Below, in pieces: positions 7,434 to 63,553 of a stretch of DNA of 64,000 bases. The DNA is taken from NCBI GenBank assembly GCA_001817915.1, contig MHJJ01000014.1:3695-67694 (forward strand), in the 5' to 3' direction. Below the pieces are notes generated by a model. The model saw nothing but the letters and a program-made list of their open reading frames with translations, ran no database searches and was not told where the DNA came from. Position 1 is the first letter of the stretch, and each line of letters starts with the position of its first letter. The stretch is from Candidatus Harrisonbacteria bacterium RIFCSPLOWO2_01_FULL_44_18. GTDB taxonomy: Bacteria > Patescibacteriota > Minisyncoccia > UBA6257 > WO2-44-18. The position numbers and the translations under genes were made by a program.

Positions 7434-8717
7434 ATGGCAAATTTTAAAAAAACAATTCTCAAAAATGGGCTTAGGATAGTTTTGGCGCCCCAGGCCGACA
7501 GTTTAACGGTTACGGTTTTAGTTTTGGTTGCCACCGGTTCAAAGTATGAAACCAAAGAGATCAACGGCATTTCTCATTTTTTAGAGCACCTTTGTTTTAA
7601 GGGCACGAAAAAGCGGCCAACGGCATTGGCCATCACTTCCGAACTTGACGGCATTGGCTCCGAGTACAACGCTTTTACCGGCGAAGAATACACCGGTTAT
7701 CACGCCAAAGTTGAAGCTCGGCATACCGATAAAATTCTGGACATCATTTCGGATCTTTACGTGAATCCGATTTTTGATCCGGCGGAAATTGAAAAAGAAA
7801 AAGGCGTTATCATTGAAGAACTTAATATGTATGAAGACCTGCCGATGCGCAAAGTTCAGGAAGTTTTTACAGAATTGCTTTACGGCGATCAGCCAGCCGG
7901 CTGGCCAATCGGCGGCCGCAAAGAAATTATTCAAAAGATCGCCCACGACGACATTATCAAATATCGTTCTCGGCACTATGTCGCTAATTCGACAGCCGTG
8001 ATAGTCAGCGGCGGCTTTTCCGCCAAAGGCGGAGAAAAATTGCTGGTTTCAAAAATCGAAAAATCTTTTAAAAACGTACTTATAGGAAAAAAGGGAACTA
8101 AAATAAAAACTCAAATTAACCAAACTAGGCCGGCTGTTTCAATTCAGTATAAGGAATCGGATCAAGCTCATTTAGTTTTGGGTTGCCACGCGTATGATAT
8201 TTTTGATAGGCGCCGTCATGCCTTGATGCTTTTGGCGGATATTTTAGGCGGCGGGATGAGTTCTCGTTTGTTTCAAAGAGTCAGAGAACAAATGGGCGCG
8301 GCTTATTATGTAAAAGCCGATCCGGAATTGCATACCGATCACGGGTATTTCGCGGTTTCCGCCGGAGTGGATAATCAAAAATTATTGCCGGTTATTAAAG
8401 CAATTTTGGAGGAACTGGCAAAGATCGGCCAAGGTTTAATTTCTGATAAAGAATTAAAACGAGCCAAAGACCATTTAAGCGGGGGATTGATAATCGGTTT
8501 GGAGACATCGGACGCGCTGGCGATGTTTTATGGCGGTCAGGAGATTTTTAAACGTGAGTTGATGACTCCGCGGGAATTGTTGAAAAAGATTGATTCCGTC
8601 GCGAAAAAAGAAGTAGTGGCCGCAGCCAAAGACATTTTCCAAAACTCAAAATTGAATTTGGCGCTTATCGGCCCTCACAAGAATTCTAAAGACATTGAAA
8701 AAATTTTGAGATTTTAA
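7434..8717 (+). CDS. M16 family zinc peptidase (insulinase-like)
   Basis: Inverted zinc motif HFLEHLCFKG (HxxEH). Start moved to MANFKK, because the longer ORF overlaps the end of glyQS. Confidence 0.85.
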   Translation: MANFKKTILKNGLRIVLAPQADSLTVTVLVLVATGSKYETKEINGISHFLEHLCFKGTKKRPTALAITSELDGIGSEYNAFTGEEYTGYHAKVEARHTDKILDIISDLYVNPIFDPAEIEKEKGVIIEELNMYEDLPMRKVQEVFTELLYGDQPAGWPIGGRKEIIQKIAHDDIIKYRSRHYVANSTAVIVSGGFSAKGGEKLLVSKIEKSFKNVLIGKKGTKIKTQINQTRPAVSIQYKESDQAHLVLGCHAYDIFDRRRHALMLLADILGGGMSSRLFQRVREQMGAAYYVKADPELHTDHGYFAVSAGVDNQKLLPVIKAILEELAKIGQGLISDKELKRAKDHLSGGLIIGLETSDALAMFYGGQEIFKRELMTPRELLKKIDSVAKKEVVAAAKDIFQNSKLNLALIGPHKNSKDIEKILRF

Positions 8718-8822
8718 GCCGTGAAATTCAATTTGACTTATTTGTCGTGGTAAGCTATTCTTTATCGTAACAATTGTCGCCTTTTCGCGGTTCTCTTAAG
8801 TAGAGGACGGTATAAAATAAAA

Positions 8823-9848
8823 ATGGATTTTAAAAATTTCGACATTACTTGGGGAGGCCTTTGGCGGGTCTTTTTTATGGTTCTTTTGGTTTGGGCTTTG
8901 TTTATGGCTCGCGACGTTGTCATAGTTTTATTGCTGGCCATAGTTATTTCTTCCGCCCTTGATCCAATCGTGACATTTTTGCAAAAAAAGAAGATCCCGA
9001 GAATTTTGGGAGCGCTGGCGATTTTTATTTTAGTAATTTTCATTCTGGCGTTAATTTTCTACACCATCATTCCAATCGCCCTTTTTGAATTCAATAATTT
9101 ATTGGGCAGTCTTAGCCAAAGAACGGATTCGGTTTTTGAATTCGTTAAAGCCCCCGAGATTTTAGCTACTATCAATACCAGCCTGGAGAGATTGACCGAT
9201 ATCTTGCTAAGCGGCAGCGCTTCCGTCGTTGATATCGCCAGTAAATTTTTGGGAGGATTGGTTTTGCTGATTTCTGTTTTTGTTCTTTCTTTTTATCTTA
9301 CGGTTGACAAAGACGGCGTAGAAAGATTTCTCATCGCGGTTTTGCCAACGGCCTCCGAGTCCAAATTTTTGGATATTTACGCGCAAACTAAAAAGAAAAT
9401 CGGCGATTGGCTGAAGGGGCAAATATTTTTGAGTCTAACTATGGGCGTCGTGGTATTCGCGGGCTTGAAATTGCTGGGCGTAAAGTACAGTTTAGTTTTG
9501 GCTATCTTGGCCGGCGTTTTAGAACTTATTCCGTACGTCGGCCCTATTTTTAGCGGCACGGTCGCGGTTTTGATCGGTTTGACCGATTCATTTGCTTTAG
9601 GTCTTTATGTTCTTTTATTATTCATTGTTATTCAGCAACTTGAAGGCCATGTTTTAGTGCCGGCGGTTACCCGTTTCACCACCAACCTTAATCCCGTCGT
9701 GGTGTTGGTTAGTTTGATGATCGGCGCGAAAATTTTCGGTTTTGTCGGAGTTATTTTAGCCGTGCCATTGGCAGTAATGGCGCAGGAATTTATTGAGGAG
9801 TTGTCTCAGTCAAAGCAGCGCCGCCGAGACTCAAAACTCATTAGATGA
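8823..9848 (+). CDS. AI-2E family transporter (PerM/UPF0118-like permease)
   Basis: 341 aa polytopic membrane protein. ELIPYVGPI and QQLEGHVLVP are motifs typical of the family. Confidence 0.75.
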   Translation: MDFKNFDITWGGLWRVFFMVLLVWALFMARDVVIVLLLAIVISSALDPIVTFLQKKKIPRILGALAIFILVIFILALIFYTIIPIALFEFNNLLGSLSQRTDSVFEFVKAPEILATINTSLERLTDILLSGSASVVDIASKFLGGLVLLISVFVLSFYLTVDKDGVERFLIAVLPTASESKFLDIYAQTKKKIGDWLKGQIFLSLTMGVVVFAGLKLLGVKYSLVLAILAGVLELIPYVGPIFSGTVAVLIGLTDSFALGLYVLLLFIVIQQLEGHVLVPAVTRFTTNLNPVVVLVSLMIGAKIFGFVGVILAVPLAVMAQEFIEELSQSKQRRRDSKLIR

Positions 9849-21424: not shown

Positions 21425-21667
21425 TGGACCTAGCCAGAATCCCCTGCCTGCCGGCAGGCAGGGAACTGGCGTTTCCTCATTGTCCCGACAGCAAAGGTGG
21501 ACCCAAGGAGATTCGAACTCCTGACCTCCACATTGCAAATGTGGCGCTCTAGCCAACTGAGCTATGGGCCCACCTTTACTGTCGTGGATCCTCGACTTCA
21601 TTTTATTATATTTTTTAAAAAAGTGCGTCGGGACAAATGAGGTGTTCTGCCACTGAACTATAGGCCC
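21425..21667 (-). pseudogene. interrupted Ala-type tRNA gene (host of the nested tRNA-Ala; also has a T-loop palindrome)
   Basis: Minus strand reads GGGCCTA-TA-GTTC-AGTGGCA-GAAC-A-CCTCA-TTTG, then a 151-nt insert, then CAA-TGAGG-AAAC-GCCAG-TTC, then a 21-22-nt palindrome, then GATT-CTGGC-TAGGTCC-A. G3:U70 is present. Confidence 0.6.
21498..21571 (-). tRNA. tRNA-Ala(UGC)
   Basis: GGGCCCA-TA-GCTC-AGTTGGCTA-GAGC-G-CCACA-TTTGCAA-TGTGG-AGGTC-AGGAG-TTCGAAT-CTCCT-TGGGTCC-A, with G3:U70. Confidence 0.9.
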
Positions 21668-23404: not shown

Positions 23405-23631
23405 GCCACCTCCTTTCATATAAATCTCTGTCTGACTTCCGATGTCCCCAATATTGATAATTTTCCGAAGGGCAATCGGCTGGAAGCCGATCGGACATCG
23501 GAAGTCTCAATATTAGGACATCCGATATCCGTCCCGATGTTCATCGGGATCGCCTGCGGCGAGAATATAATATTTGGGATATCGGATGTCTGCCAGCAGC
23601 GCGACCGAGAGCTTATATGAAAGGAGGTGGC
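23405..23631. repeat. compound nested palindrome N3
   Basis: Perfect 18-bp outer arms gccacctcctttcatata / tatatgaaaggaggtggc. Inner pairs are gacttccgatgtcc/ggacatcggaagtc, catccgatatcc/ggatatcggatg and cccgatg/catcggg. Confidence 0.9.
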
Positions 23632-24737: not shown

Positions 24738-24761
24738 AAATTCCCTCGAATGAGGGAATTT
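24738..24761. terminator. hairpin aaattccctc gaat gagggaattt
   Basis: Lies just 3' of the minus-strand ORF 24760-25464, overlapping its stop codon. Its sequence is similar to the hairpin at 22736. Confidence 0.5.
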
Positions 24762-25464
24762 AAATTGGATTTTGAATAATGTCGGGGATCATTGATGGAA
24801 CCAGTCCCAAGCGGTTACGCGCGGAACGGGGATCGCAAAACATGATCATAATCTTGTTTGTTCTGAAATGAACGTATGCTTGATATTGAGATAGATCGCC
24901 GTCGCCATTATCGGCGCACCAAATCGCCTGTTCATTAAAAATAAGTTTTTTTCTAAGCAAGCGGCGGATCAGCCAAGTGTAGACGTAGACTACGGCCCTT
25001 TCCCGAATTTGCGTTTCTCCAGTGAAGCGTTCTTCTTGATCGAAAAAACTTTTCCGCAAACTGCCGCTTAGAATCGCCTTTCTTAGCAAATACCACTTGA
25101 GTTCGCAGGTCTCGCGCTTCACGAAATCCATTTTTGTAATATCTGCCGCCTCTTCGCTTAAAATCGAGTTTTTCGCCTGGACAAATTTTACCCCCGGAAT
25201 TTTACCGCATAGAAATATAATCCTATTTATTGTGAGCGGGCGATTGGCGCCGTCTTGAGTTAGGCCCGGGAAGAGCACATAGTCGTCTTTACATTCTATG
25301 AGTTTAGCCGGAGAAAAGGGGATGACATCCAGACGCGTTTTTTCTGGAATAGATAATTTTGTTTTCCAAATCTCGCAGACTTCCATATAATCCATAAAAT
25401 TGTTTCCCATTATTTTTCGAGCGCCCCAGCGGGAGGTTCCATCATCTGTCATTTCGCGCCTCAT
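24760..25464 (-). CDS. hypothetical protein, no recognisable family
   Basis: 234-aa ORF. The start may instead be the second ATG (25452), which sits behind GAGG. No motif recognised. Confidence 0.5.
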   Translation of the reverse strand: MRREMTDDGTSRWGARKIMGNNFMDYMEVCEIWKTKLSIPEKTRLDVIPFSPAKLIECKDDYVLFPGLTQDGANRPLTINRIIFLCGKIPGVKFVQAKNSILSEEAADITKMDFVKRETCELKWYLLRKAILSGSLRKSFFDQEERFTGETQIRERAVVYVYTWLIRRLLRKKLIFNEQAIWCADNGDGDLSQYQAYVHFRTNKIMIMFCDPRSARNRLGLVPSMIPDIIQNPI

Positions 25465-25559
25465 TGAATTTTTTGATGAACTGCTTAAACTATAAAGATT
25501 AGTGAAAAATTAGTCAATTAGGGGTAAAATATTTTTAAATTGCCCTAAGAAATAAATTT

Positions 25560-25595
25560 GGAAGCGTTGCAGAGTGGACGAATGCACCATTTGGC
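25560..25595 (+). pseudogene. orphan 5' half of a Ser-type tRNA
   Basis: GGAAGCG-TT-GCAGAGTGGACGAATGC-A-CCATT... has the acceptor 5' strand and a D-arm very like that of the neighbouring tRNA-Ser. I found no matching 3' half. Confidence 0.5.
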
Positions 25596-25607
25596 TCTAT
25601 TCAAAGC

Positions 25608-25694
25608 GGAGGGTTGGCAGAGTGGTCTAACGCGCCGCACTTGAAATGCGGTTTCCCGGAAACGGGATCACAGGTTCGAATCCTGTACCCTCCG
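25608..25694 (+). tRNA. tRNA-Ser(UGA)
   Basis: GGAGGGT-TG-GCAGAGTGGTCTAACGC-G-CCGCA-CTTGAAA-TGCGG, variable arm TTTCCCGGAAACGGGATC, ACAGG-TTCGAAT-CCTGT-ACCCTCC-G. Confidence 0.9.
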
Positions 25695-25765
25695 CTTTGA
25701 ATAGAAACTTGTCCTCCGAAGGAGGATCCGCCTCCGGTGGAAAATGCGGTATCGCAACCAAAAAG

Positions 25766-25790
25766 AAAAACTCCGCGTTGCGGAGTTTTT
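25766..25790. terminator. bidirectional intrinsic terminator
   Basis: aaaaactccgc gtt gcggagttttt, between tRNA-Ser (+) and tdk (-). Confidence 0.8.
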
Positions 25791-51557: not shown

Positions 51558-51623
51558 GCGATGAACAGGGCCCAGCCGTAATTTCAAAACACCCTAACGG
51601 GTGCTTTTTGTTTCAGCAGTCTG

Positions 51624-51698
51624 CGCGGGCGGCCGGATTTGAACCGGTGACCTTCCGCGTGACAGGCGGACGCTCTAACCAGACTGAGCTACGCCCGC
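51624..51698 (-). tRNA. tRNA-Asp(GUC)
   Basis: GCGGGCG-TA-GCTC-AGTCTGGTTA-GAGC-G-TCCGC-CTGTCAC-GCGGA-AGGTC-ACCGG-TTCAAAT-CCGGC-CGCCCGC-G. Flanked by an 11-bp inverted repeat. Confidence 0.88.
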
Positions 51699-51728
51699 GC
51701 AGATTGCTGGAATACCTTTGTTAATATA

Positions 51729-53742: not shown

Positions 53743-53809
53743 GCCGGCGTAGCTCAGCGGCACCCCGCACTAAAACAAGTTTAGTACGGGGCAAGGAGCG
53801 AGCCAAGAT
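53743..53809 (+). pseudogene. orphan tRNA 5' half with a hairpin inserted in the D-loop
   Basis: GCCGGCG-TA-GCTC-AGCGGCA, then hairpin ccccgcactaaa/tttagtacgggg, then CAAG-GAGC-G-AGCCA... No 3' half was found downstream. Confidence 0.45.
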
Positions 53810-53884
53810 GGCTGGGTAGCTCAGTGGTAGAGCAGGCGTTTCATAAGCGCCAGGTCGCGAGTTCGATCCTCGCCCCAGCCACCA
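53810..53884 (+). tRNA. tRNA-Met(CAU) elongator type (or Ile2, if the anticodon is modified), CCA encoded
   Basis: GGCTGGG-TA-GCTC-AGTGGTA-GAGC-A-GGCGT-TTCATAA-GCGCC-AGGTC-GCGAG-TTCGATC-CTCGC-CCCAGCC-ACCA. Confidence 0.88.
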
Positions 53885-53966: not shown

Positions 53967-54317
53967 GTGGCGGAGCAATTGGTGTGGGTAGGATTTACGG
54001 CCATCCTTTTTCTTGTCGGACTTTGTGTATTGGGCGCCATTTTGTCAATTGAGAAAAAGTCAAAGCGATACGCATCTTTGGCCGCCCTTTATTTTTTTGT
54101 TTGCGGTATGGTATGCGTTTTCGCGGGATTAGTAACTGCGATGCCCTGGTTTAAATTTTTTATGATGTTGGCGGCCGGGTGTAATCTTATTTGGGGGATA
54201 GAATATGTGCGGCAATATCATAAGGAAAGTAAAAAGGCTTCGCTACCATGTCCCGAGGAAAACCGCGAAAAGCAAAAGACGAATCAGGGCGCGGAGCATT
54301 TTGATAGATACGCGTAA
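53967..54317 (+). CDS. hypothetical membrane protein
   Basis: 116 aa with a GTG start behind GGAGGG and 3 TM segments. Confidence 0.5.
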   Translation: MAEQLVWVGFTAILFLVGLCVLGAILSIEKKSKRYASLAALYFFVCGMVCVFAGLVTAMPWFKFFMMLAAGCNLIWGIEYVRQYHKESKKASLPCPEENREKQKTNQGAEHFDRYA

Positions 54318-54356
54318 GCTTGGAAAGGAGGTGGGATCATAACAGCCACGACTGCT

Positions 54357-54542
54357 ATGGCCGTTTCAGTTGCAGTGATTCTCGTTATATCTATCGCGGC
54401 AACCTTACTTTTCAGACATAGTCGCAGATTACACCTTTTTTGCGGTGTTCGGGATTTGATGTTTGCCGGTTTGTCTTTTCTGTCATTCGCGATTCATAAT
54501 TTTCACTGGCTTTGGTCTTGGGTCCCTTTATATTTTTTTTGA
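54357..54542 (+). CDS. hypothetical small membrane protein
   Basis: 61 aa with 2 TM segments. AAAGGAGGTGGG lies upstream, with a spacing of about 20 nt. Confidence 0.4.
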   Translation: MAVSVAVILVISIAATLLFRHSRRLHLFCGVRDLMFAGLSFLSFAIHNFHWLWSWVPLYFF

Positions 54543-60319: not shown

Positions 60320-63300
60320 ATGGCTAAAACAAAAGCAAAAAAAGCGAGTAAAAATGAGGAGAAACAGCCTTCTTATACTGCCAAAGACATTTATGTTTTG
60401 GAAGGATTGGAGCCGGTTCGAAAGCGGCCGGGGATGTATATTGGCACAACTGATGTTGCTGGCCTACACCACCTAATTTATGAAGTCGTTGATAATTCAA
60501 TTGACGAGGCGATGGCCGGATACGCGAAAAATATTCAAGTTGAGTTTTTGCCGGGCAATCGGATAGCGGTAACCGATGATGGCCGCGGCATTCCGGTAGA
60601 GATTCATAAACAAACCAAAAAATCCGCGCTTGAAACCGTGATGACAACTTTGCATGCCGGAGGGAAATTTGGCGGCGAATCTTATAAAGTCTCCGGCGGC
60701 TTGCATGGCGTCGGCGTTTCGGTAGTTTGCGCCCTCTCAAAGTGGATGAAAGCGGAGGTTTGCCGCGATAAAGGACTTTATGTTCAAGAATATGAGCGCG
60801 GTAAACCGCAATATAAAGTTAAAAAAATAGCAAAGTGCGATAGTACCGGCACTAAAGTAACTTTTGAGCCGGATCCGGAAATTTTTAAAACGATTGAATT
60901 CGACCGCAAGCGCGTCTTGGATCATTTGCGCCAGCAAGCTTTTCTTACTAAAGGCGCAAGAATCGAAGTCATCGATATTCGCGAAAAAACGCCTTTTTAC
61001 CACGCCTTCTATTTTGACGGCGGACTTTTATCATTTATCAAATTTCTTAACCGCAGCGAAAAACCGCTGCAAGAGACGCCTTTTTACATTAATAAAACCT
61101 CGGAGGGCGTGGAGGTTGAGGCGGTTTTTACTTATAATAACGAATTGGAAATTCAGGAATTGAGCTTTGCCAATAATATTTATACTCCTGATGGCGGGAT
61201 GCATTTGACCGGTTTTCGTTCGGCCTTAACCCGCACTTTAAATGATTATGCTCGCGGCAACGATTATGTTAAAAAAGATGAAGATAATTTGACTGGTGAT
61301 GATGTGAGGGAGGGTCTTGTTGCCATTGTTTCGGTGAAAATTCGCGAGCCGCAATTTGAAGGCCAGACTAAGGCAAGGTTAGGAAATTCTGAAGCCAGGA
61401 CGGCGGTTGAGGGCGTTATCGGTGAAGCGCTTAAGGAATTTTTGGAAAGAAATTCTGTCGATGCCAGGCGTATCATGGAAAAATGCCTGTTGGCCGCTAA
61501 GGCCAGGAAAGCGGCTAAAGCGGCGAAAGAAACCGTGCTACGCAAGGGGATTTTAGAAGGATTAACTCTGCCCGGAAAATTAGCCGATTGTAGTTCAAGA
61601 AACCCCGAAGAATCGGAGTTGTTTATCGTGGAAGGAGATAGCGCCGGTGGGTGTTTTTTCGGTGAAACAAAAGTAGCTTTATTAGATGGAAGGAATATCT
61701 CGTTTAAAGATTTAGTTGAGGAAGAAAAAAAAGGAAAGAAAAATTTTTGTTATACCATAAAAAAAGATGGCCATATTGGCGTTGCTCCTATTTTAAATCC
61801 AAGAATAACCAGGCAGAATGCTAAAGTGGCTAAGGTTATTTTGGATAATGGTCAAGAAATTATATGTACGCCAGGTCATAAGTTTATGCTTAGAGATGGC
61901 ACTTTTAGAGAGGCCAAAGATTTAAATTGCAGAGATTCTTTAATGCCTTTATATCGAAAAAAATCGGAGATTGGAGGGCGAATAACAATTGATGGGTATG
62001 AAATGGTCTACAATCCTAAAGAAAATTTTTGGAGGTTTACTCATGTTTTATCAGATGGGCTTAATTTAGAAAATAAAACGTATTTTGAAACTAATGGACC
62101 ACAAAGGCACCATAAAGATTTTAATAAATTAAATAATAATCCGAATAATATTACCCGACTATCCAAAGAAGATCATTTTAGAATCCATCAAGAAATTGCC
62201 CTGACCGTATTGAGAAGCCCAGAGGTTTTAGAAAAATTAAGGAAAATAAGGCAATCCCCCGAATATAGAAATAGGATAAGCAAAAAAATGCGCGAGCCCA
62301 GAATGAGAGCCATACTTAGCGAAAGAGCCAAAAAACAATGGGAAAACGAGAATTATAAAAAATTTATGGCTCAGAAGTTTTTAGGATTTTATAAAAATAA
62401 TGAGGAATACAGAAATAAAAATAAAAAATTACTGTACAAAAGCCAGATGGAGTATTGGAACAACGAAGACAACAGAAAGAAACAAGCCGAAAGGGTTAGA
62501 AATTATTTCCATAAAAATTTAGTCATAAGGTCTTGGCTTTCTCAAATCGCGAAACAGCAGTGGGATGATTCAGCTCTAATAAAATGGAGGGCGAACAAAA
62601 CCAAAGAACAATGGACTCAAGCATTTAGAATTAAAAGGAGCATGGCTTATAGCAAGACATATAAAGAGAAGGCCCTGAAATTGCTAAAAGAACTTTTTGA
62701 TGGAAATGGGAAAATTGAAAAAGGAGAATATACACGGGAAAGACTTATTAGAAAAGACAAATCTATCCTTAGATATGAAACCATTTGTGAAAGATTTTTT
62801 GATAGTGATGAAAATAAATTGAAAGAAGCCGTAATAAATTACAATCATAAAATTAAAGCAGTGATTCCATTAGAAGAAAAGATGGACGTATACGATATAG
62901 AGGTTCCCAATACTCACAATTTTGCTCTTGCTTCTGGAGTTTTTGTTCATAATAGTAGTAAGCAAGGACGTGACCGGCGAACTCAAGCAATTCTTCCGCT
63001 TAAGGGCAAGATTTTGAATGTGGAAAAATCAAGGATTGATAAAATGCTTTTGAACAAAGAGATTAAAGCGTTAGTGGTTGCCATAGGAACGGCGATAGCC
63101 GAGTCGTTCGATATCAATAAATTGCGCTACCATAAAGTGATTTTAATGACTGACGCCGATGTTGACGGATCGCATATCCGGACTTTGCTTTTGACTCTTT
63201 TTTATCGCTACTTTCCCCAAATTATTGACGAAGGCCATCTTTACATCGCCCAACCCCCGCTTTATCGCGTTCAAAAAGGCAAAGAAATAAGCTATATTTA

Positions 63301-63553
63301 CAGAGAAGAAGAAAGAGAAAAATTACCGAAAGAGGGGATTAATTTACAGCGCTATAAAGGTCTTGGCGAAATGAATCCGGAACAGCTTTGGGAAACGACC
63401 ATGGATCCGGCCAAAAGAGCATTGAGGATAGTGAAGGTGGATGATGTCGAAGAGGCTGATAGAATGTTTGATGTTTTGATGGGTGAAGACGTTGAGCCGA
63501 GGAAAAATTTTATACAAGCCCACGCTCTTTCAGTTAAAAACTTCGATATATAA
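60320..63553 (+). CDS. gyrB: DNA gyrase subunit B, interrupted by an intein
   Basis: 1077 aa. The exteins total 643 aa and carry the GLHHLIYEVVDNSIDEA, EGDSAGG / S-KQGRDR, PLKGKILNVEK and LMTDADVDGSHI motifs. Confidence 0.95.
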   Translation: MAKTKAKKASKNEEKQPSYTAKDIYVLEGLEPVRKRPGMYIGTTDVAGLHHLIYEVVDNSIDEAMAGYAKNIQVEFLPGNRIAVTDDGRGIPVEIHKQTKKSALETVMTTLHAGGKFGGESYKVSGGLHGVGVSVVCALSKWMKAEVCRDKGLYVQEYERGKPQYKVKKIAKCDSTGTKVTFEPDPEIFKTIEFDRKRVLDHLRQQAFLTKGARIEVIDIREKTPFYHAFYFDGGLLSFIKFLNRSEKPLQETPFYINKTSEGVEVEAVFTYNNELEIQELSFANNIYTPDGGMHLTGFRSALTRTLNDYARGNDYVKKDEDNLTGDDVREGLVAIVSVKIREPQFEGQTKARLGNSEARTAVEGVIGEALKEFLERNSVDARRIMEKCLLAAKARKAAKAAKETVLRKGILEGLTLPGKLADCSSRNPEESELFIVEGDSAGGCFFGETKVALLDGRNISFKDLVEEEKKGKKNFCYTIKKDGHIGVAPILNPRITRQNAKVAKVILDNGQEIICTPGHKFMLRDGTFREAKDLNCRDSLMPLYRKKSEIGGRITIDGYEMVYNPKENFWRFTHVLSDGLNLENKTYFETNGPQRHHKDFNKLNNNPNNITRLSKEDHFRIHQEIALTVLRSPEVLEKLRKIRQSPEYRNRISKKMREPRMRAILSERAKKQWENENYKKFMAQKFLGFYKNNEEYRNKNKKLLYKSQMEYWNNEDNRKKQAERVRNYFHKNLVIRSWLSQIAKQQWDDSALIKWRANKTKEQWTQAFRIKRSMAYSKTYKEKALKLLKELFDGNGKIEKGEYTRERLIRKDKSILRYETICERFFDSDENKLKEAVINYNHKIKAVIPLEEKMDVYDIEVPNTHNFALASGVFVHNSSKQGRDRRTQAILPLKGKILNVEKSRIDKMLLNKEIKALVVAIGTAIAESFDINKLRYHKVILMTDADVDGSHIRTLLLTLFYRYFPQIIDEGHLYIAQPPLYRVQKGKEISYIYREEEREKLPKEGINLQRYKGLGEMNPEQLWETTMDPAKRALRIVKVDDVEEADRMFDVLMGEDVEPRKNFIQAHALSVKNFDI
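61652..62953 (+). mobile_element. GyrB intein (434 aa) with an HNH-type endonuclease motif
   Basis: Starts at Cys (CFFGETKVALLDG), has block B TPGHKF, and ends VFVHN followed by Ser. Inserted within EGDSAGG|SxKQGRDR. The internal segment HHKDFNKLNNNPNNITRLSKEDHFRIH looks HNH-like. Confidence 0.88.

Follow-up and report, generated by a model that had tools for sequence, protein, structure and literature searches.

Organisation of the tRNA-Ser(UGA) locus

The stretch of DNA analysed here, called the window, is a 64-kb chromosomal segment of a groundwater bacterium of the candidate phyla radiation (CPR), Candidatus Harrisonbacteria. Nine tRNAs were detected in it by both ARAGORN and Rfam. One of them, a tRNA-Ser(UGA), is bracketed by the two arms of an inverted repeat, designated the 'clamp', and is preceded by a short segment designated the 'stub'; a thymidine kinase (TK) gene lies on the other side, in the opposite orientation (Table 1). 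Two relatives could be compared at this place: L101, whose TK is 89% identical, and L103, a related Harrisonbacterium whose TK is 61% identical. The Ser locus was 100% identical in eight full-length contigs, which came from different samples and different assemblers, and it is therefore not an assembly artefact. For the organism's own genome, the analysis covered the window.

Table 1. Position of the main features of the tRNA-Ser(UGA) locus and of the two interrupted genes of the window
Feature	Position	Strand	Remarks
Promoter-like site (GTGAAA, 17-nt spacer, TAAAAT)	25502..25530	+	9/12 matches; 30 nt upstream of the stub
Stub of the resident tRNA-Ser(UGA)	25560..25589	+	acceptor 5' strand, D arm and 3-4 nt at the start of the anticodon stem
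Junction TTTGGC (6 nt), from stub to cassette	25590..25595	+	placed by alignment; assignment uncertain
Clamp 5' arm, TCTATTCAAAGC	25596..25607	+	left end of the 110-nt cassette; 12 contiguous pairs from -1:73
Intact, putative replacement tRNA-Ser(UGA)	25608..25694	+	class II, long variable arm, G73, no encoded CCA
Clamp 3' arm, GCTTTGAATAGA	25694..25705	+	right end of the cassette; first G is the discriminator G73
Native intergenic segment	25705..25752	+	two small hairpins, TCCTCC-GAA-GGAGGA and TCCGCC-TCC-GGTGGA; alignment with L101
Bidirectional intrinsic terminator, tRNA unit (+) and thymidine kinase (-)	25766..25790	.	conserved in L101
Outer tRNA-Arg(CCU)	22159-21980	-	end of the D loop interrupted by 108 nt (22138-22031)
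Outer tRNA-Ala(UGC), G3:U70	21667-21425	-	interrupted between positions 35 and 36 by 150 nt (21633-21484)

A sequence-only reading of this DNA had described an intact tRNA-Ser(UGA) at the locus, and both programs agree with it. ARAGORN places a Ser(tga) gene at 25608-25695, and Rfam family RF00005 matches 25608-25694 with 56.6 bits (E = 1.6e-9), above its gathering score of 29; the long variable arm and G73 can be read directly from the sequence. This tRNA is 76% identical to the tRNA-Ser(CGA) of the same genome, with which it has the anticodon stem in common, and 68% identical to the native type of tRNA-Ser(UGA) described below.

The perfect 12-bp inverted repeat claimed in the same reading was also found. 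Together with the 7-bp acceptor stem, the 12 flanking base pairs make up an inverted repeat of 19 nt with 100% complementarity (25596-25614 and 25687-25705), in which TCTATTCAAAGC followed by GGAGGGT faces ACCCTCC followed by GCTTTGAATAGA, and G73 pairs with base -1. The chance of a perfect 12-bp repeat abutting both ends of a tRNA is about 4^-12. Each 12-mer arm is single-copy, with no other occurrence in the window. Arm, tRNA and arm form a unit of 110 nt, the ends of which are discrete, because the repeat is perfect over 19 bp and homology with L101 resumes at 25705.

The promoter-like site upstream of the stub has a -10 element, GGTAAAAT, that is also present just upstream of an uninterrupted tRNA-Ser(UGA) in L103. 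This site is probably the promoter of the resident tRNA-Ser, which would now drive the replacement tRNA. In the predicted fold of the transcript (minimum free energy -105.1 kcal/mol, z = -6.75), the stub falls in the leader and the inner tRNA is closed by an unbroken helix of 19 bp, as expected from the earlier proposal that the repeat lengthens the acceptor stem by 12 bp in the precursor.

Identity of the stub

The stub reads GGAAGCG TT GCAGAGTGGACGAATGC A CCA; over 29 nt, it has 72% identity with the beginning of the intact tRNA that follows. Its origin could be traced by synteny. In L103, which was reached through its TK gene and hence independently of the sequence of the stub, a tRNA-Ser(UGA) lies 45 nt from TK and reads GGAAGCGTGGCAGAGTGGACGAATGCACCGGTTTTGAAAACCGGAAGGTCCGAAAGGGCCTCGGAGGTTCGAATC. 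This gene is unbroken through the anticodon and variable arms, and is cut after the T loop by the end of the contig. Its first 30 nt are identical to the stub at 28 positions. L101 has a matching tRNA 3' end, GGAGGTTCAAATCCTCCCGCTTCCG (...GGAGGTTCAAATCCTCCCGCTTCCGCA), at its contig end, some 940 nt from where its collinearity with the window begins.

Because it matches the uninterrupted, TK-adjacent tRNA-Ser(UGA) of L103 at 28 of 30 positions, the stub is assigned to the resident gene for the same anticodon. By this alignment it corresponds to the 5' third of the lineage's own tRNA-Ser(UGA), and not to another Ser isoacceptor. The sequence-only reading had seen here, at 25560-25595, the orphan 5' part of another Ser-type tRNA, and had suggested that relatives be compared for an uninterrupted gene of the ancestral type. 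Such a gene exists beside TK in L103, and the Ser-type remnant holds; it is only about 30 nt long (to 25589) instead of 36, and the tRNA from which it comes is not a different one, since by the L103 alignment it has the anticodon UGA of the intact gene. In the junction that follows, TTTG may be a remnant of the native anticodon loop (TTTGAAA).

The acceptor and D-arm type of the stub is common to more than 120 metagenomic tRNA-Ser(UGA) genes. An nhmmer profile of 81 metagenomic tRNA-Ser(UGA) matched 25560-25589 as its positions 1-30 with an E value of 3.3e-4 for the whole window, a value that is partly circular, as the 81 members were picked by a pattern taken from the first 18 nt of the stub. 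Rfam RF00005 gave no match on the stub, either with the isolated fragment (E up to 10) or in the whole window (E up to 5), where the only matches were the nine tRNAs. Lack of similarity to tRNA covariance models had been put forward beforehand as a reason to discard the fragment, and formally this is the outcome; however, the general tRNA model cannot reach significance on a 30-nt piece, so that its silence is expected, and it is orthology only (28/30 with L103) that identifies the stub as a tRNA remnant.

The missing 3' half

A 3' partner for the stub had been reported as missing, and the wider search agrees for the 64 kb. The sequence CGCTTCC was found nowhere in the window after a T arm, and the profile of 81 tRNA-Ser(UGA) detected no orphan 3' half of a tRNA-Ser there. 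Deleting the inner tRNA together with 0-99 nt on each side never restored an outer tRNA-Ser; the same scan recovers the outer tRNA-Arg. Moreover, the 60 nt downstream of the repeat aligned with the native 3' half with a score at the shuffle mean.

The same region does align with intergenic DNA of L101. The score for 25705-25752 was 34, compared to 21.4 +/- 3.1 for shuffled sequences (0 of 300 shuffles reached 34), and the homology restarts precisely at 25705, the base with which the 3' repeat arm ends. As L101 has its own tRNA 3' end besides this intergenic DNA, the comparison indicates that the rest of the native gene and the DNA up to 25705 are missing from the window, and that segment 25705-25752 is not derived from a tRNA. 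A degenerate 3' half composed of CGCAACCA (25753-25760) and a variable-arm-like hairpin was considered and rejected, given its shuffle-mean score and its homology to L101 intergenic DNA. The GGATCC-centred palindrome noticed earlier in this region (25709-25744) is real, but it is imperfect (81%) and is better described as two adjacent hairpins belonging to native intergenic DNA.

Nested tRNA genes in the window

Two further tRNA genes of the window are interrupted by an insert that contains a complete tRNA of the same anticodon (Table 1). In the outer tRNA-Arg(CCU), the insert consists of 18 nt, an intact tRNA-Arg(CCU) (22120-22049) and another 18 nt, and the two flanks pair (14 bp, four 1-nt mismatches). 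The outer gene is immediately preceded by a strong promoter (22196-22168) and followed, after 2 nt, by the tRNA-Ser(CGA). In the outer tRNA-Ala(UGC), the insert contains an intact tRNA-Ala(UGC), the flanks of which form 13 contiguous bp; the 5' arm of this clamp is split by a 45-nt AT-rich piece, which contains TATAAT and is bounded by CGAC direct repeats. The T loop of the outer Ala gene has a perfect 21-22-nt palindrome, CCCTGCCTGCCGGCAGGCAGGG (21442-21463). After removal of the inserts in silico, both outer genes give perfect ARAGORN cloverleaves, and the outer tRNA-Ser is truncated; the earlier view of the Ser locus as a more decayed version of these nests is thus supported. For the Arg and Ala nests, no comparison could be drawn from the HtrA relatives L224-L228, which are without the Ala/Ser/Arg cluster.

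Two other tRNA loci of the window show part of the same pattern. One is a free-standing tRNA-Asp(GUC) (51613-51709, minus strand), with a promoter region of its own on one side and a terminator on the other; its leader and trailer, CAGCAATCTGC / GCAGACTGCTG, form a clamp of 11 bp, with one mismatch, starting from -1:73. As this tRNA is free-standing yet clamped, the clamp is a property of the tRNA unit, independent of nesting. Upstream of a tRNA-Met (53810-53881), an orphan 5' tRNA piece (53743-53809) reads GCCGGCG TA GCTC AGCGGCA ... GAGC G AGCCA. It carries in its D loop a 33-nt hairpin insert, CCCCGCACTAAAACAAGTTTAGTACGGGGCAAG, the edge of which is marked by the 10-mer ACGGGGCAAG, and no 3' half for it was found nearby.

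The clamps were compared with the flanks of background tRNAs. Leader/trailer duplex energies were -24.8 kcal/mol for Ala, -23.9 for Arg, -16.7 for Ser and -15.2 for Asp, against a background median of -5.0 and a 5th percentile of -12.9 kcal/mol (n = 194). A contiguous clamp of at least 7 bp occurred in 2 of 191 background tRNAs, a set that is mostly non-CPR, and both cases were from CPR. Strong duplex energies were also obtained in L117, L137, L166 and L110; they were set aside as effects of composition (62-70% GC genomes) and not true clamps.

Nested tRNA genes in a distant relative

Comparable nests were found in L120, a metagenome contig (Ga0155240_151) of a distant Parcubacteria-like CPR relative, in which PilM (31% identical) and ComF (about 42% identical) occupy the same neighbourhood. 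Downstream of ComF (9620-9300, minus strand), an intact tRNA-Ser(UGA) with a 12-bp clamp from -1:73 lies inside a degraded outer tRNA-Ser(UGA), which has G.T, G.T and A.C in its acceptor stem, a mismatch in the T stem and a non-canonical T loop, TTAGAGT. Within the 5' junction of this nest lies a perfect 12-bp hairpin, formed by an inverted duplication of outer D-arm sequence. The inner gene is of the GGAAGCG type, that is, the type of the resident gene and stub of the window. Since this type is inner in L120 and resident in the window, no tRNA type is fixed as the invader.

In the second nest of L120 (1990-1730, minus strand), a tRNA-Val(GAC) enclosed in an 11-bp stem, CCCCGTTAGAC / GTCTAACGGGG, occupies the anticodon loop of a Val-like outer gene, for which no clean reconstruction of the anticodon loop was obtained. 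Beyond it lies a third, orphan 3' half with GTAACGGGGCAAGT in front, which suggests that overwriting took place repeatedly. The 10-mer ACGGGGCAAG is present at the 3' edge of both Val inserts, as it is at the edge of the hairpin insert upstream of tRNA-Met in the window. Viral contigs were also scanned for the motif CCCCG..ACGGGGCAAG; the hits, none of them associated with a tRNA, were terminator-like hairpins or due to chance, and were rejected.

Origin of the Ser locus

The arrangement is best explained, and probably so, by the entry of a clamped replacement tRNA into the resident gene, followed by takeover of the promoter and decay of the old gene. According to this scenario, a clamped tRNA unit would have inserted into the resident tRNA-Ser(UGA) in or near the anticodon loop. 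Equivalent clean events would be those in the D loop of tRNA-Arg(CCU) and at 35/36 of tRNA-Ala(UGC) in the window, and in the tRNA-Ser(UGA) of L120. The interrupted single-copy gene would be dispensable because the cargo decodes the same codons, and its 3' two-thirds would have been lost in the insertion event or afterwards. The unit would then be transcribed from the resident promoter with the dead stub included in the 5' leader. Once transcribed, the arms would extend the acceptor stem to a helix of 19 bp (24 bp if stacked on the T stem), which most likely would be opened, or cleaved by an RNase specific for double strands (RNase III type), before trimming by RNase P and RNase Z; CCA, which is not encoded, would be added after trimming. 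As to the arms themselves, their perfect complementarity and the start of pairing at -1:73 would also be compatible with fold-back (snap-back) synthesis, for which the inverted repeat of the acceptor stem would have served as primer. An analogue is provided by the L120 Ser junction with its inverted duplication.

The outer genes can be ordered in a series, from perfect (Arg, Ala) to degraded (L120 Ser) and truncated (window Ser, Met-upstream piece and third Val fragment of L120). Such a series is expected upon release from selection once a cargo of the same anticodon is in place, and it argues against maintenance and routine splicing of the outer genes. In all four nests that could be scored (Arg, Ala and Ser twice), like was inserted into like, and the tRNA-Val of L120 also lies in a Val-like outer gene. 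Either a single-copy gene can be rescued only by a cargo of the same anticodon, or the target is selected through homology or homing.

Several observations weigh against this scenario. The stub goes unrecognised by Rfam, as a fragment and in the whole window. None of the close relatives shows a cassette-free version of the locus: L101 differs over about 900 nt, and in both L101 and L103 the contig ends within the tRNA. The genome may have another tRNA-Ser(UGA) gene elsewhere, the scope here being 64 kb. A leader/trailer helix of 12 bp should be an obstacle to RNase P, and the processing of the clamp is something we purely infer. Direct signs of mobility are lacking, since the unit is single-copy in the 64 kb and has no target-site duplication; domain scans of the open reading frames (ORFs) of the window gave no transposase, integrase or homing endonuclease, and the viral, phage and plasmid collections searched yielded no donor. 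A phage or plasmid origin was accordingly rejected, as viral contigs contained no exact matches and Blast against phages and plasmids returned only generic tRNA-Ser matches of 76-81%. Finally, a one-step replacement anchored in homology on the TK side gives the same end state without insertion of a cassette.

That last alternative is rather unlikely in our view, although it explains the Ser locus taken alone about as well as insertion of a clamped unit does. DNA of a divergent strain, with its own TK-adjacent tRNA-Ser(UGA), would have entered by homologous recombination on the TK side and illegitimate joining inside the resident tRNA; in a variant, to which the same judgement applies, tandem duplicate genes would have been followed by a deletion. 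In either case the repeat would stem from fold-back synthesis at the repair junction. The exact restart of L101 homology at the end of the 3' arm fits such an event, as does the loss of the native 3' half and of all DNA up to that point. Competence and pilus genes are present in the window (ComF, PilM, T2SSE/F, prepilin peptidase), and tRNA-Ser recurs beside TK in L021, L022 and L103, so that a donor would naturally bring the same isoacceptor. What tells against it comes from the other nests: the Arg, Ala and L120 Ser nests keep both outer halves with no base lost or duplicated, unlike the product of a one-sided illegitimate joining, and clamps also flank inner tRNAs where no deletion has occurred.

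In GTDB genomes, the nearest TK relatives are 49% identical and mostly from Chloroflexi, and TK relatives at 66%, 64% and 54% identity have no tRNA by TK. In L021, a CPR metagenome-assembled genome whose TK is 49% identical, the TK-adjacent tRNA-Ser(UGA) (8700-8810) encodes CCA; its 7-bp leader/trailer pairing, TTGTCAT / ATGACAA, uses the final A of CCA and leaves G73-C-C unpaired.

Returning to insertion of a clamped unit, the nests taken together allow a broader, more tentative proposal, which we hold to be possible though somewhat short of probable. In CPR bacteria, small hairpin-ended units bearing a tRNA (a mobile cassette or a tRNA-bearing intron) would insert in loops of resident genes for the same isoacceptor, take over the promoter and replace the resident, so that resident genes would be serially overwritten; the Ser locus would be an end stage. 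Units of this class would insert without target duplication, at the D loop, 35/36 and 37/38; related hairpin inserts have in common, even between distant genomes, the edge motif ACGGGGCAAG.

Comparison with known systems

Hairpin miniature inverted-repeat transposable elements (MITEs), such as the Correia elements of Neisseria, and the leader/trailer stems of rRNA form long helices in transcripts, which are possible RNase III substrates. The 110-nt unit resembles MITEs in being short and non-coding with terminal inverted repeats (perfect 12-nt arms, 19 nt with the acceptor stem), and it resembles rRNA processing stems in that complementary flanking sequences extend the terminal helix of a stable RNA. 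It differs from MITEs in that its cargo is a functional tRNA. Moreover, of the hallmarks of MITEs only the terminal inverted repeats were found: there is no target-site duplication (the flanks are GGC and AAC), and the arms are unique, copies being judged in the window. Unlike both MITEs and rRNA stems, its helix abuts the acceptor stem of a tRNA, where it should interfere with RNase P.

Breaks in the D, anticodon and T loops of tRNA genes are known from the non-canonical introns and split tRNAs of archaea (Thermoproteales; Nanoarchaeum equitans, Caldivirga). The nests are similar in their loop interruptions, in the complementary helix flanking the break and in the existence of some halves without an adjacent partner. 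They differ in that the host is bacterial, the intervening sequence is a tRNA of the same anticodon, the outer copies decay and no bulge-helix-bulge is formed. Instead of two bulges of 3 nt on either side of a 4-bp helix where exon and intron meet, the predicted folds had uninterrupted helices, and no bulge or mismatch at the boundaries exceeded 1 nt. A splicing endonuclease (EndA) was not found among the genes of the window, nor was a split gene of the Nanoarchaeum type within the 64 kb, the complement of the arm being placed directly after the inner tRNA.

Group I introns have been described in tRNA genes of Patescibacteria, in the anticodon loop and in some cases at position 35/36; the interrupted genes are missed by standard annotation (PMC13011429). 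The phylum is the same, tRNA genes are interrupted in both cases, and 35/36 is the exact site of the Ala nest. The inserts of the window nevertheless differ in being without a ribozyme (Rfam, at gathering and relaxed thresholds) and in consisting of a 108-150-nt helix with a complete tRNA; they also occur in D and T loops, and the truncated Ser gene cannot be spliced back. A group I intron would have its ribozyme core (P3-P9) flanked by two exons; at the Ser locus, no Intron_gpI match was obtained, the 110-nt insert is itself a tRNA and the 3' exon is absent.

These systems suggest a second alternative, in which the gene would be a functional interrupted or split tRNA: the stub would be joined in cis or in trans to a distant 3' half, the repeat helix would serve as the leader helix of a split tRNA or as a splicing motif, and the inner tRNA would be a by-product. 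The outer Arg and Ala genes do speak for it, as they are flawless and broken only in loops (D loop, 35/36, T loop) in the manner of archaeal non-canonical introns; a helix-forming sequence directly follows the stub, and tRNA introns are tolerated in Patescibacteria, position 35/36 included (PMC13011429). We nonetheless consider it highly improbable. The stub has neither an anticodon loop nor the 3' strand of the anticodon stem, the 3' half is absent from the 64 kb, and the partner of the helix arm lies directly across the inner tRNA instead of being attached to a 3' half. Furthermore, the helices are continuous and lack bulge-helix-bulge geometry, Rfam gives no group I intron signal, the L120 outer copies are visibly decaying, and neither a splicing endonuclease nor an RNA ligase is encoded in the window.

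Islands and prophages with tyrosine integrases also target tRNA genes; the segment that they bring in keeps the tRNA functional, and a partial copy of the tRNA is left. Insertion into a tRNA gene, function kept by the incoming segment and a partial copy left behind are thus common to both situations. Such islands, however, restore only the 3' part of the tRNA, are kilobases long and have an integrase and direct repeats, compared to a whole tRNA, 110 nt, inverted-repeat ends and a 5' remnant here. That the stub is the scar of such an element, which would have integrated in a tRNA-Ser, duplicated part of it and later been lost, can be practically dismissed. It is true that tRNA genes are classic integration sites and that a partial tRNA may lie beside an intact one in ordinary bacteria, as in L166, where a fragment of a tRNA-Ser precedes the complete gene. 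But the scar of an integrase is normally a 3' part, with the same sequence as the intact gene and the element in between, whereas the remnant at the Ser locus comes from the 5' part, has only 72% identity with the neighbouring tRNA and lies 18 nt from it; neither an integrase domain in the ORFs scanned nor such a direct repeat was found in the window.

Full-text literature searches, of incomplete coverage, returned no published description of tRNA genes nested in tRNA genes in bacteria. The phenomenon to which the Ser locus belongs looks new, and it is a real possibility that the underlying unit represents a new type of element. Taken alone, the Ser locus is a pseudogene fragment, left over after decay; what makes it valuable is the comparison with relatives, by which the resident copy can be told from the newcomer and the process be given a direction. 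Transfer RNA genes are among the most conserved and least rearranged of bacterial genes. If the pattern is general, reduced CPR genomes would renew single-copy tRNA genes by overwriting them with a foreign copy of the same anticodon, which would constitute a new route of tRNA gene turnover and horizontal exchange. It would also be a novel form of compensated gene disruption, the insert supplying a functional copy of the gene that it breaks, and a source of annotation errors, outer genes and stubs being invisible to tRNA finders. Two questions follow, namely how a pre-tRNA with a 12-14-bp leader/trailer helix matures, and whether the perfect outer Arg and Ala tRNAs are spliced.

Other features of the window

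The TK and HtrA of the window match proteins of Candidatus Harrisonbacteria RIFCSPHIGHO2_01_FULL with 100% identity. Housekeeping genes of the window include GlmS, LeuRS, MetRS, PheRS, LigA, GyrB and type IV pilus genes. The ORF that had been pointed out beside the Ser locus (24760-25464) is present and encodes a lineage-restricted hypothetical protein; with no Pfam domain and only five related clusters, it was rejected as a candidate nuclease or transposase. A tRNA-Lys(CUU) with a 307-nt intron (53977-54373), proposed by ARAGORN when introns were allowed, is probably a false positive, as it has no Rfam support and overlaps an ORF (53967-54317). The intergenic region 23410-23600, upstream of an M50 peptidase gene, contains dense inverted repeats, GACTTCCGATGTCC / GGACATCGGAAGTC and GGACATCCGATATCC / GGATATCGGATGTC. 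In the GyrB gene (60320-63553), an intein (Intein_splicing domain, residues 454-878) lies between the GyrB and Toprim domains. In L225, another Harrisonbacterium, an ORF with a faint LAGLIDADG_3 match (8231-8974) is located between rplS and a tRNA-Leu(GAG), its end only 1 nt from the tRNA; in the window, rplS and tRNA-Leu are likewise paired, but this ORF is absent.

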